Shown here: piece by piece, positions 7,711 to 8,921 of the stretch
Layout: the number at the start of each line of letters is the position of its first letter
Position numbering within the stretch: the stretch's first letter is position 1
Source: Escherichia coli
Lineage (GTDB): Bacteria; Pseudomonadota; Gammaproteobacteria; Enterobacterales; Enterobacteriaceae
Reading direction: 5' to 3' (one strand)
Length of the DNA: 64,000 nt
NCBI RefSeq assembly: GCF_044324785.1
Contig: NZ_CP172127.1
Program-made: the position numbers and the translations under genes
The notes under the pieces: generated by a model
What the model was told of the DNA's origin: nothing
Seen by the model: the letters and a program-made list of their open reading frames with translations, nothing else
The model's database searches: none

Positions 7711-8007
7711 ATGCAAGCTATAGGATTCATTGTTTATATCGTCGTTGGTCTTTTTCAGTTGGCAGCAATTATGGCTGGGCTTGAATCATGGTGGGGATTG
7801 CACTGGATAATTGCAGCCCCCATTGCTTTCATCGTGAGCTATATTCCATTTGTTGGAGCGATTGTTGGTATGGTTGGCGCTGTGGATGTATGGCGGTGGG
7901 AGTGGTGGCAGGCTGGCCTTCTCTTCTTTGGTGGGATCATCTTTGCTATTGTCTGCGGTGGAATGTCATCATTTTTCGAATGGCTATCATTCAGAAAAGG
8001 GACGTGA
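7711..8007 (+). CDS. Small integral membrane protein, about 99 aa (candidate superinfection-exclusion type)
   Basis: ORF 7651..8007; likely start ATG 7711 after AGGTGA; several hydrophobic segments. Confidence 0.45.
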   Translation: MQAIGFIVYIVVGLFQLAAIMAGLESWWGLHWIIAAPIAFIVSYIPFVGAIVGMVGAVDVWRWEWWQAGLLFFGGIIFAIVCGGMSSFFEWLSFRKGT

Positions 8008-8015
8008 CATGTCAC

Positions 8016-8040
8016 AGGCCGCTTTCGCGGCCTTGTTTTT
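8016..8040. terminator. Hairpin plus T-tract terminator, likely bidirectional
   Basis: aggccgc-tttc-gcggcct followed by tgttttt directly after stop at 8007. Confidence 0.55.
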
Positions 8041-8200
8041 AACGAATGCCACCGCCGCCTGGGCGGGAATCCGCAGAACGCCCACCGCAGCGTGAGCCGT
8101 CAGCAGCAGTGTCGCTGTCGTGCTGACAACGACCGGCAAAGGCCTGAGTTGAAGCTACCAGAGACAACAAAACGAACAGTGCAGCAAATGCTTTTTTCAT
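8039..8200 (-). CDS. Small exported peptide, 53 aa, signal peptide with AFA cleavage motif and two-Cys Gly-rich mature part
   Basis: Internal ATG 8200 of ORF 8039..8272; N-terminus MKKAFAALFVLLSLVASTQAFA; own promoter. Confidence 0.3.
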   Translation of the reverse strand: MKKAFAALFVLLSLVASTQAFAGRCQHDSDTAADGSRCGGRSADSRPGGGGIR

Positions 8201-8212
8201 TGTGACATTTCC

Positions 8213-8241
8213 ATCTATAAGCCACCTCAATGTGGCGTCAA
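8213..8241 (-). promoter_or_regulatory. Sigma70-like promoter for small exported peptide gene (TTGACG, 16 bp, TATAGA)
   Basis: Read on minus strand between terminator of upstream cassette and ATG 8200. Confidence 0.4.
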
Positions 8242-8267
8242 TGAGTGTAGCACTGACTTTTGTTTCG

Positions 8268-8293
8268 TCCACAAAAAAGCCCGCAGCGCGGGC
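8268..8293 (-). terminator. Rho-independent terminator of the two-gene cassette
   Basis: Minus strand GCCCGCGCUGCGGGC hairpin followed by UUUUUUG, overlapping stop codon at 8293-8295. Confidence 0.6.
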
Positions 8294-8733
8294 TATTCTT
8301 CTTCATCATTAAAAAGCGGATTGTTGTTTCCATCTGATGAAAGGAAAGGTATGTGTTCTCTTGAAAATCCAACAATGACAATTTCATTATCATTTTTTGC
8401 ATAATGAATGCATTCATTAGAATGCCTTCCGCCAGGGTTGAAATTTAAGTTAATGGTATAATTCTTAAATGTGTTTGGATACCATGTTGGCCCACAATGA
8501 TAATGCCAATAATTCTCTTGCTCATAATTGTCTGAGCCGGGAATTTTATCATGGTTATCATCAACCCACGAGGGCTTGTTTTTTCCAACAAGCGCCCTTC
8601 CATTGGCAACATCCTCTAAAAAACTTTGTATGATTTTTATTTCATCATCAGTAAGGAAAGGTCCGTCTACAGCGAAAGGGGTGTTGCTTTCCCCATGTAG
8701 AAAACTATTAGATATTCTAATGTTAAACTTCAA
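8293..8733 (-). CDS. Unknown 146-aa protein, no internal Met, proposed TTG start, acidic C-terminus (AT-rich cargo gene)
   Basis: Frame of ORF 8293..8874; AGGAG 6 nt before TTG 8733; upstream part of the 193-aa ORF overlaps a better-supported small gene in another frame. Confidence 0.45.
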   Translation of the reverse strand: MKFNIRISNSFLHGESNTPFAVDGPFLTDDEIKIIQSFLEDVANGRALVGKNKPSWVDDNHDKIPGSDNYEQENYWHYHCGPTWYPNTFKNYTINLNFNPGGRHSNECIHYAKNDNEIVIVGFSREHIPFLSSDGNNNPLFNDEEE

Positions 8734-8753
8734 GGAAAACTCCTGATGTGCTT

Positions 8754-8921
8754 CTATTTGGAGCGAAATGCCGCCTTGAAGTCGCTGAAAGATGTTCCTG
8801 TCTGGTAAACCATATCCTTGTCGCGCTCTTTGCTTGCGCGGCCAAGCATAACTTTTCCAATGACATCCCAGCATTGCTTGGCTTGTTCATTGTGCTGAGT
8901 ACGATTTTTCAACGCTGTCAT
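8754..8921 (-). CDS. Unknown small basic protein, 55 aa (MTALKNRTQHNEQAKQCWDVIGKVMLGRASKERDKDMVYQTGTSFSDFKAAFRSK)
   Basis: ATG 8921 preceded by AAAGGAGG at 7-nt spacing; hand-translated; below ORF-track length cutoff. Confidence 0.45.
   Translation of the reverse strand: MTALKNRTQHNEQAKQCWDVIGKVMLGRASKERDKDMVYQTGTSFSDFKAAFRSK

Follow-up and report, generated by a model that had tools for sequence, protein, structure and literature searches.

A putative single-gene moron in an epsilon15-like Escherichia coli prophage, predicted to encode an exported two-cysteine peptide

The 64,000-nucleotide stretch of the Escherichia coli contig NZ_CP172127.1 analysed here (the window) carries, on its minus strand, a 53-codon gene at 8039-8200 in an epsilon15-like (Uetakevirus) prophage, and comparison with related loci indicates that this gene is the only one in a small mobile cassette. 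Our best overall explanation, to which we assign a probability of roughly 60%, is an autonomous moron cassette with its own promoter, encoding an exported, disulfide-looped peptide with an envelope role that benefits the lysogen. A cassette-borne sigma70 promoter (TGGACG, 16 bp, TGcTACACT) would start the mRNA about 36-38 nt before the ATG, the mRNA would open with a conserved stem-loop, and the product would be a Sec pre-protein that is cut after A-F-A22, delivering a very hydrophilic 31-residue peptide of about 3 kDa into the periplasm. There the two invariant cysteines (C-x12-C) would be oxidised to form a disulfide loop, and the peptide would bind an envelope or periplasmic target, serving not virion production but the lysogen, by protection against incoming phage or envelope-targeting toxins.

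The open reading frame (ORF) starts with an ATG at 8200 and ends with the TAA at 8041-8039, and its product (WP_000708858.1, equal to Orf11 of phage phiv142-3 and gp43 of phage TL-2011b) consists of MKKAFAALFVLLSLVASTQAFA followed by GRCQHDSDTAADGSRCGGRSADSRPGGGGIR. The PGAP label is 'hypothetical protein', gp43 is labelled 'putative transmembrane anchored protein', and the profile of PHROG 14503, placed by PHROGs in the category 'moron, auxiliary metabolic gene and host takeover', matches residues 1-53 of 53 (E = 2.3e-40). Homologs were found in Klebsiella, Citrobacter, Cronobacter, Franconibacter, Enterobacter, Pantoea, Pectobacterium, Dickeya, Salmonella and others, with amino-acid conservation reaching across at least ten genera. 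In the protein alignment the roughly 22 N-terminal residues drift and the stretch C-Q-H-D-x-D-T-A-A-D-G-S-R-C-G-G-R-S-A-D-S-R-P-G-G is almost invariant; 16 positions are invariant among 20 distinct mature sequences. Substitutions counted by the Nei-Gojobori method for ten loci gave, for the mature part between genera, 10 to 21 synonymous differences at about 23 sites against 2 to 7 non-synonymous differences at about 64 (for the window and locus L009, 18 of 23 against 4 of 64), and non-synonymous divergence (dN) in the signal part ranged from 0.1 to 0.9. The ORF is intact in all 99 loci where it was located, and the cassette DNA used as a query matches 543 of 5426 complete E. coli genomes. With synonymous sites saturated between genera and the mature part almost invariant, the 53-codon frame proposed in an earlier reading of the DNA alone (the sequence-only reading) is, judged by these substitution patterns, beyond reasonable doubt a genuine gene under strong purifying selection.

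Two further ideas about the gene were discarded. The 3' half is GC-rich, but a foreign origin was rejected, the GC content at third codon positions (GC3) being 0.47 and the bias tracking Gly, Arg and Ala codons. A 77-residue form starting from a GTG at 8272, which corresponds to PHROG 3117 with its N-terminal extension and is also seen in many metagenomic gene calls, was rejected as well, the extension being shut by in-frame stops in nine of eleven diverged loci. Start codons called too far upstream were observed in the family more widely, with many entries of 61-93 residues (e.g. locus L096, 2536-2703; proteins P0001, P0003, P0004, P0007, P0013 and others).

The window is 99-100% identical to phage phiv142-3 and several E. 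coli chromosomes in this stretch, and the extent of the mobile unit was delimited by comparing 5.5 kb of the window with 94 fetched loci. In most of 89 loci similarity ends upstream at 8278, 8294, 8303-8305 or 8316, in or just outside a terminator hairpin, and downstream at 8003/8004 or 8014, giving a cassette of about 275-314 bp whose largest recurrent extent is 8003-8316 (minus strand) and whose smallest is 8014-8278. The left boundary is an intrinsic terminator of the preceding gene (8272-8294, minus strand; stem 8294-8278, T-run 8277-8273), with a 7-bp stem containing six GC pairs and followed by T6; breakpoints fall at 8278 and 8294, and a terminator scan recovered the terminator that the sequence-only reading had placed just upstream of the gene. 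Rfam gave just a sub-threshold Trp_leader match on this hairpin, which was taken as chance. Phage TL-2011b shares 8316-8003 alone, between different neighbours. The identical 53-residue protein occurs, across 84 loci, in at least ten unrelated upstream neighbourhoods (YafO-like toxins, DUF4760 proteins, DUF2335 membrane proteins and unknowns) and at least five downstream ones (a small membrane protein, Ant, secreted proteins). The slot directly upstream is hypervariable (window 8293-8874; L003, L016, L018, L024, L025, L038, L063 and L067), and each gene found there ends at the same terminator hairpin.

More distant contexts are equally varied. In a Pantoea lambdoid prophage the homolog lies between the antiterminator gene Q and the holin gene, on the strand opposite Q and the lysis genes, and another slot follows RelB/YafQ and adjoins lysis genes. 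In Pectobacterium and Dickeya the homolog stands beside MuF_C polyvalent proteins, in Kosakonia it adjoins a SieA-domain gene, and in the lambdoid contig L012 it comes directly behind cI and a Rap1a-domain gene, separated by 8 nt, and precedes a terminator. Among close phages the gene is present or absent at one position: phiv142-3, HEMP4 and TL-2011b carry it, and the close relative phiV10 has lost it and kept the last 57 bp (about 19 coding nucleotides, the downstream hairpin and a palindrome), as have the O157 typing phages, which likewise retain 57 bp of the 3' end. Recombination boundaries thus lie immediately around one gene. By comparison, 8003-8316 appears as an autonomous single-gene accessory cassette that moves as a unit between neighbourhoods and phage types; hairpin-bounded, set among many different neighbours and missing from phiV10, it fits the single-gene moron of the sequence-only reading, a classification that is not new and is already implicit in the database category.

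The moron concept reportedly goes back to Juhala et al. and Hendrix et al. in 2000. Known temperate-phage morons, such as bor and lom of lambda or gp15 of HK97, are similarly single extra genes that are present or absent at the same slot, and the peptide gene is likewise flanked by terminator-type hairpins, preceded by a promoter-like element, spread over several phage types and predicted to have an envelope-located product. It differs in that the downstream hairpin is a canonical terminator for the opposite strand only, and in that the compositional difference from the flanks is explained by amino-acid content. Of the own promoter and terminator that characterise morons, the cassette offers a positionally conserved sigma70-like candidate and a 3' hairpin that lacks a U-tract on the gene strand.

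The N-terminus of the product has the anatomy of a Sec signal peptide, as had been proposed from the sequence. The predicted signal peptide MKKAFAALFVLLSLVASTQAFA (8135-8200, minus strand) comprises an n-region MKK (charge +2), an h-region AFAALFVLLSLVA of 13 residues with a mean Kyte-Doolittle hydropathy of 2.74, and a c-region STQAFA followed by G; region anatomy and the (-3,-1) rule place the predicted signal peptidase I cut after Ala22. A charged n-region, an h-region within the 7-15-residue range and small residues at -3 and -1 are all present. The comparison set consisted of 136 distinct relatives whose N-terminal hydrophobic segment is followed by the module. The (-3,-1) rule is satisfied at the same position in 122 of these; position -1 is A in 117, position -3 is A, S or V in 128, a G stands two positions before the first Cys in 126, and the N-terminus is net positive in 92%. 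The signal region is fast-evolving, yet its signal-peptide properties are kept. The lipobox pattern [LVI][ASTVI][GAS]C is absent, the first Cys being preceded by F-A-G-R-C with Arg at -1 (family consensus A-G-N-C), and neither a twin-arginine motif nor a double-glycine leader was detected in the N-terminus. Readings as a lipoprotein, a twin-arginine translocation (Tat) substrate or a microcin were rejected for want of their defining motifs; a class II microcin or bacteriocin was further rejected on the Sec-type leader, the phage and accessory genes nearby and the missing exporter. From this residue pattern, the product is very probably a Sec pre-protein cut by signal peptidase I after A-F-A22.

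An alternative is that the hydrophobic segment is an uncleaved signal-anchor, which would make the product a bitopic inner-membrane protein of 53 residues whose C-terminal module faces the periplasm. This agrees with the database names 'transmembrane anchored protein' and 'membrane associated protein', with the many larger relatives whose module is tethered by a preceding hydrophobic segment, and with the N-terminal helix of the AlphaFold model. The uncharged core, however, spans just about 13-15 residues, too short for a membrane anchor, and then gives way to a polar c-region; the 122 relatives share the placement of small residues at -3 and -1, and the names are automatic propagations without a cited experiment, a literature search by name, accession, PHROG id and motif having found no experimental source for the 'transmembrane anchored' label. 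Because the cleavage-site pattern is conserved atop a freely drifting hydrophobic core, cleavage is favoured over anchoring; we regard the anchored form as unlikely, and the 'transmembrane anchored' label as probably wrong. PHROG 14503, PHROG 3117 and the NCBI 'transmembrane anchored protein' entries belong to the same family by full-length match, and for these, too, the evidence assembled here favours a cleaved soluble peptide.

The predicted mature peptide GRCQHDSDTAADGSRCGGRSADSRPGGGGIR (8042-8134, minus strand; 31 residues, 3.06 kDa, isoelectric point 8.1) is nearly invariant across genera. It contains 8 Gly and 2 Cys, in line with the Gly-rich part of roughly 31 residues with two cysteines described before; its mean hydropathy is -1.19, and the two cysteines, spaced C-x12-C, are invariant. 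A profile of the mature part alone retrieved 196 representative proteins at E <= 0.001, and a whole-family profile retrieved 905 clusters. The module consensus is G-N-C-x-x-P-x-D-x-A-A-D-G-S-R-C-G-G-R-S/A-A-x-x-R-P-G-G-x. In most matches the module ends the protein, exactly one residue past RPGG, and otherwise it stands directly after the signal peptide. Species-representative carriers belong to Enterobacterales, Pasteurellaceae, Vibrio, many Rhizobiales, Burkholderiaceae, cyanobacteria and Bacteriovorax. The partner domains recognised by Pfam are all extracytoplasmic: T2SS-T3SS_pil_N (four proteins), bacterial SH3 or SH3_3 (three), PG_binding_1 and NucA/NucB. The module itself was without a Pfam family in 117 larger proteins scanned, and without an NCBIfam family in ten of them. 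AlphaFold2, run on a 100-sequence alignment, returned a compact loop with little regular secondary structure (mean predicted local distance difference test, pLDDT, of 75; 77-83 over residues 21-40). These profile matches point to a widespread, uncurated extracytoplasmic C-x12-C mini-domain of which the mature peptide would be a stand-alone copy, and the occurrence of the module after signal peptides or with extracytoplasmic domains in the larger family probably supports an extracytoplasmic location.

A four-Cys subfamily was also observed, with the pattern C-P-C-P-Y...N-G-S-R-C-G-G-R-S-A-Y-S-R-P-G-G-x-x-P-x-C-Y; this variant (CPCPY..NGSRCGGRSAYSRPGG..P.CY) occurs in P0093, P0109, P0130, P0137, P0162, P0169 and P0176 together with bacterial SH3 or PG_binding_1 domains, company that hints at a peptidoglycan-related setting. 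The mature peptide is reminiscent of Excalibur, DxDxDG calcium-binding and small disulfide modules, which are also short, Asp/Gly-rich and extracytoplasmic, have conserved Cys and are often appended to secreted proteins. It differs from them in the motif, here D-x-D-x-x-x-D-G-S-R-C, and in the conservation of Arg (three) as well as Asp (two), and it has no Pfam match even at E <= 1.

The candidate sigma70 promoter lies at 8244-8271 on the minus strand (-35 TGGACG at 8271-8266, 16-bp spacer, and TGcTACACT with TG at 8252-8251 and the hexamer at 8249-8244), and its predicted start is near 8238-8236, about 36-38 nt before the ATG. It is the sole site passing the scan rules within 120 nt upstream of the gene. 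All seven loci compared have a -10 element with A at position 2 and T at position 6 that ends 39-43 nt before the true ATG (TACACT, TAAACT, TAAAAT in three loci, TACAAT and TATTAT), each with a -35-like hexamer 16-18 bp upstream. The predicted mRNA 5' end is occupied by a stem-loop at 8221-8236 on the minus strand (GCCAC 8236-8232, loop 8231-8226, GTGGC 8225-8221), and in seven of seven diverged leaders folding places such a stem-loop directly after the predicted start. The arms vary in sequence (GCCAC/GTGGC, CACCACC/GGTGGTT, AGGCCAT/ATGGCCT, CCATC/GATGG) and their pairing is kept, with 95% of cells paired, compensatory changes at three of six pairs and 19-50% pairing in slid controls; the observed score was reached by one of 500 shuffles. 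This covariation among seven sequences is supportive, not conclusive. A reading of the inverted repeat as a protein operator was set aside as unlikely because its sequence varies and the pairing is kept. Its conserved position makes TGGACG/TGcTACACT a better candidate to drive the peptide gene than the hexamers of the sequence-only reading. Translation would start from a weak Shine-Dalgarno-like GGA at 8210-8212 (minus strand), 9 nt before the ATG, the GG of which is conserved in the aligned leaders; in other phage contexts the homologs are preceded by strong Shine-Dalgarno sequences (AGGAGG, AAGGA).

The gene could instead lack a promoter of its own and depend on read-through from the ant side or on lytic expression, serving the phage cycle (entry, exit or lysis timing) and not the lysogen. 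It shares its strand with the Bro-N/Ant gene and the gene at 8293-8874, its promoter candidate is modest, with none found in L012 and L095, and the Pantoea locus adjoins Q and lysis genes. Nevertheless, a strong intrinsic terminator separates the upstream gene, the 5' region of the cassette is kept while the genes upstream swap among at least ten types, and the Pantoea gene runs opposite to Q and the lysis genes. In L012, moreover, the peptide gene belongs to the repressor (cI) operon. The lambda cI-rexAB operon is expressed in the lysogen, and by analogy the L012 repressor operon would be lysogen-expressed, too. We therefore consider dependence on read-through or lytic transcription improbable, and expression of the cassette would be independent of the lytic programme, as the comparison with lambda suggests.

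A little less probable again is that transcription starts from the promoter of the sequence-only reading, TTGACG (8241-8236), a 16-bp spacer and TATAGA (8219-8214), which spans 8214-8241 on the minus strand about 30 bp downstream of the candidate favoured here. The sequence elements quoted in that reading are all present, on the minus strand; the -35 agrees with the consensus in five of six positions, and the hexamers lie inside the cassette and would thus travel with the gene. TATAGA, however, has no T at position 6, the highly conserved -7 T, and the pair was not called by the promoter scan; sites matching nine of twelve positions under the scan's stricter -10 rule number five in 1.6 kb, against 3.3 expected by chance. 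With 13 nt between TATAGA and the ATG, transcription would begin about 6-7 nt ahead of the ATG, leaving the conserved GG at -12/-11 (of the Shine-Dalgarno-like GGA) out of an mRNA that would be neither leaderless nor Shine-Dalgarno-led. In six diverged epsilon15-slot loci and one remnant (Klebsiella, Cronobacter, Enterobacter, Atlantibacter and Kosakonia included), the aligned positions show one to three of six consensus matches and never the terminal T. Furthermore, the -35 overlaps the predicted start and the 5' arm at the base of the covarying stem-loop, and the -10 falls in the 5' untranslated region. These hexamers, described as a 'good' sigma70 promoter, are probably not a promoter and are the weakest part of the sequence-only reading. 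The last alternative, a chance ORF or non-coding remnant in an inter-terminator spacer, for which the short frame, the weak Shine-Dalgarno and the compositionally simple GC-rich 3' half might speak, has practically no remaining probability and is in effect already refuted by protein conservation across at least ten genera despite synonymous saturation, by the 905 related protein clusters and by the intact gene in 99 of 99 loci.

At the 3' end, the stop codon lies 5 nt before the stem 8033-8016 of a GC-rich hairpin (AGGCCGC-TTTC-GCGGCCT, 8016-8033), in an A-run that is the U-tract of the convergent terminator, and not inside the hairpin as previously thought. A terminator shared by the two converging genes had been proposed as well: on the plus strand the hairpin is followed by TTGTTTTT (T-tract 8034-8040) and is a canonical terminator for the convergent gene, a role it does not have in canonical form on the minus strand, where a U-tract for the peptide gene is missing. 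In L011 and L012 the peptide gene is followed by a hairpin with a proper U-tract on its own strand. The right cassette edge is formed by a perfect 12-bp palindrome, GTGACATGTCAC (8004-8015), with breakpoints falling at either end. It stands 24-27 nt past the stop codon in 81 loci, among them diverged genera and phiV10, from which the gene has been deleted. Possible roles are those of a module junction, a binding site for a protein or an element of a 3' RNA structure; a repeated operator was rejected, the palindrome being single-copy in the window. The convergent neighbour (7711-8007, plus strand) encodes a 98-residue multi-pass membrane protein of PHROG 3075, the stop codon of which overlaps the palindrome; phiV10 has a shorter membrane protein with two predicted transmembrane helices in its place.

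Clues to function come from neighbouring genes and from known systems. Rap1a-family genes lie within about 0.1-0.6 kb of the peptide gene in about four independent contexts of some sixty examined, namely a Klebsiella prophage, the lambdoid contig with the order cI-Rap1a-peptide, Devosia and Kaistia. The Rap1a neighbours were located at 4711-5094 in L004, 3618-3992 in L012, 4213-4581 in L118, 4453-4842 in L139 and 4481-4924 in L158. Rap1a proteins (PF18602; Serratia Rap1a/Ssp1) are periplasmic immunity proteins of the type VI secretion system. Like the predicted peptide they are small, Sec-exported and periplasmic, are found as orphan cargo on mobile elements and recur as its close neighbours, and unlike Rap1a the peptide is non-homologous and about four times smaller. 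The two genes are arranged on the same strand with an 8-nt gap, on the same strand with a gap of about 320 nt, or convergently, and an obligate Rap1a-peptide operon was rejected since this arrangement is not constant. Other cargo in the company of the gene, of a kind typical for protective hot spots, includes the SieA-domain gene, toxin-antitoxin genes, YafO-like toxins and Ant. Beyond Enterobacterales, resolvases, integrases and HTH_3 regulators are enriched among the nearest neighbours, and some copies stand among ordinary chromosomal genes.

The predicted peptide, a small exported product of a temperate phage, resembles periplasmic or envelope superinfection-exclusion factors encoded by phages (T4 Sp and Imm, P22 SieA, T5 Llp, phi80/N15 Cor and Ltp of Streptococcus phage TP-J34). 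Its gene lies in the ejection-protein to tailspike region, which in P22 holds sieA and immI, and in Kosakonia it has the SieA-domain neighbour. In contrast to these factors, the peptide has no sequence or profile similarity to them, no lipobox, no membrane-spanning core and no PADLOC model. An exclusion or host-interaction role is plausible, and an envelope-acting, lysogen-protective role exerted by binding a periplasmic target is suggested with low confidence. More specifically, the 28-residue module GNC...DGSRCG.R[SA]A..RPGG may be an ancient extracytoplasmic mini-domain of Proteobacteria and cyanobacteria, the phage-captured free copy of which would act as a periplasmic decoy or inhibitor, orphan-immunity-like or entry-blocking, travelling with Rap1a-type genes and protecting the lysogen from peptidoglycan-targeting effectors or superinfecting phage; we consider this elaboration speculative and rather unlikely.

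Several observations weigh against the reading as a lysogen-protective cassette with its own promoter. The candidate promoter matches the consensus at four of six plus four of six positions with a TG extension, and its -35 is poorly conserved; the Shine-Dalgarno in the epsilon15 slot is weak (GGA, 9-nt spacing); and on the minus strand the 3' hairpin is followed by GTGACATGTCAC and GTCCCTTTTCT, which leaves the peptide gene without a U-tract. In some larger family members a hydrophobic segment precedes the module, which would come to lie in the cytoplasm were that segment membrane-spanning. This applies to conserved lipoprotein-type subfamilies of Burkholderiaceae (L124, L126, L128, L131, L145) and Mesorhizobium (L122, L137, L138, L140, L148), whose module forms the very C-terminus, preceded by a hydrophobic segment and then a glycine run; a cytoplasmic module there would conflict with the periplasmic reading. 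Pfam gave no match to the peptide even at E <= 1, NCBIfam matched only far below its cut-off, and neither a profile search of the PDB at E <= 10 nor a Foldseek search of the AlphaFold model against the PDB returned anything; confidence in the model is only moderate (pLDDT 75), and the signal helix dominates the structure. PADLOC-DB 2.0 had no match at E <= 0.01 for the peptide or the flanking genes. The neighbourhood of Rap1a and other defence genes may simply reflect shared cargo hot spots, an adequate alternative because the Rap1a arrangement is not constant.

A gene-by-gene study of phiv142-3 mutated orf6, orf10, orf24, orf40 and orf41 (PMC7724020). The peptide gene, orf11, was neither mutated nor mentioned there and is absent from the table of serum-induced genes, which covers significantly serum-induced genes only (PMC7724020), and this, too, counts against the proposed role. 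Further literature on the peptide gene, sought by name, accession, PHROG id and motif, yielded nothing relevant. The neighbouring orf10, credited with serum resistance (PMC7724020), corresponds to window 8445-8603 on the minus strand, within 8293-8733, and was annotated in a different frame inside a 146-residue gene that is called by PGAP and supported by PHROG 5954; the orf10 deletion phenotype may belong to this larger gene.

Taken together, what the sequence-only reading described is real except for the promoter and the detail of the stop codon, and its interpretation as a single-gene moron with a small exported peptide is supported. New here are the corrected regulatory anatomy, the case against the 'membrane-anchored' label, and the recognition of the mature peptide as a probable free-standing copy of an uncurated module. 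The promoter illustrates how comparative evidence can supersede an element chosen by eye in a single sequence, and for annotation practice the family shows that start codons are often called too far upstream. The mature part, very conserved as it is, defines a mini-domain that Pfam, NCBIfam and the PDB lack; since the 3-kDa peptide can be synthesised, it offers family curators and small-protein researchers a concrete target that is cheap to test. The cassette is carried by about one in ten complete E. coli genomes and by many Klebsiella, Cronobacter, Pectobacterium and other prophages, and its product has so far been labelled only 'hypothetical' or 'transmembrane anchored'. Should the peptide indeed be released to the periplasm, it would join the small class of prophage envelope factors that alter the dealings of the lysogen with phages, competitors and hosts.

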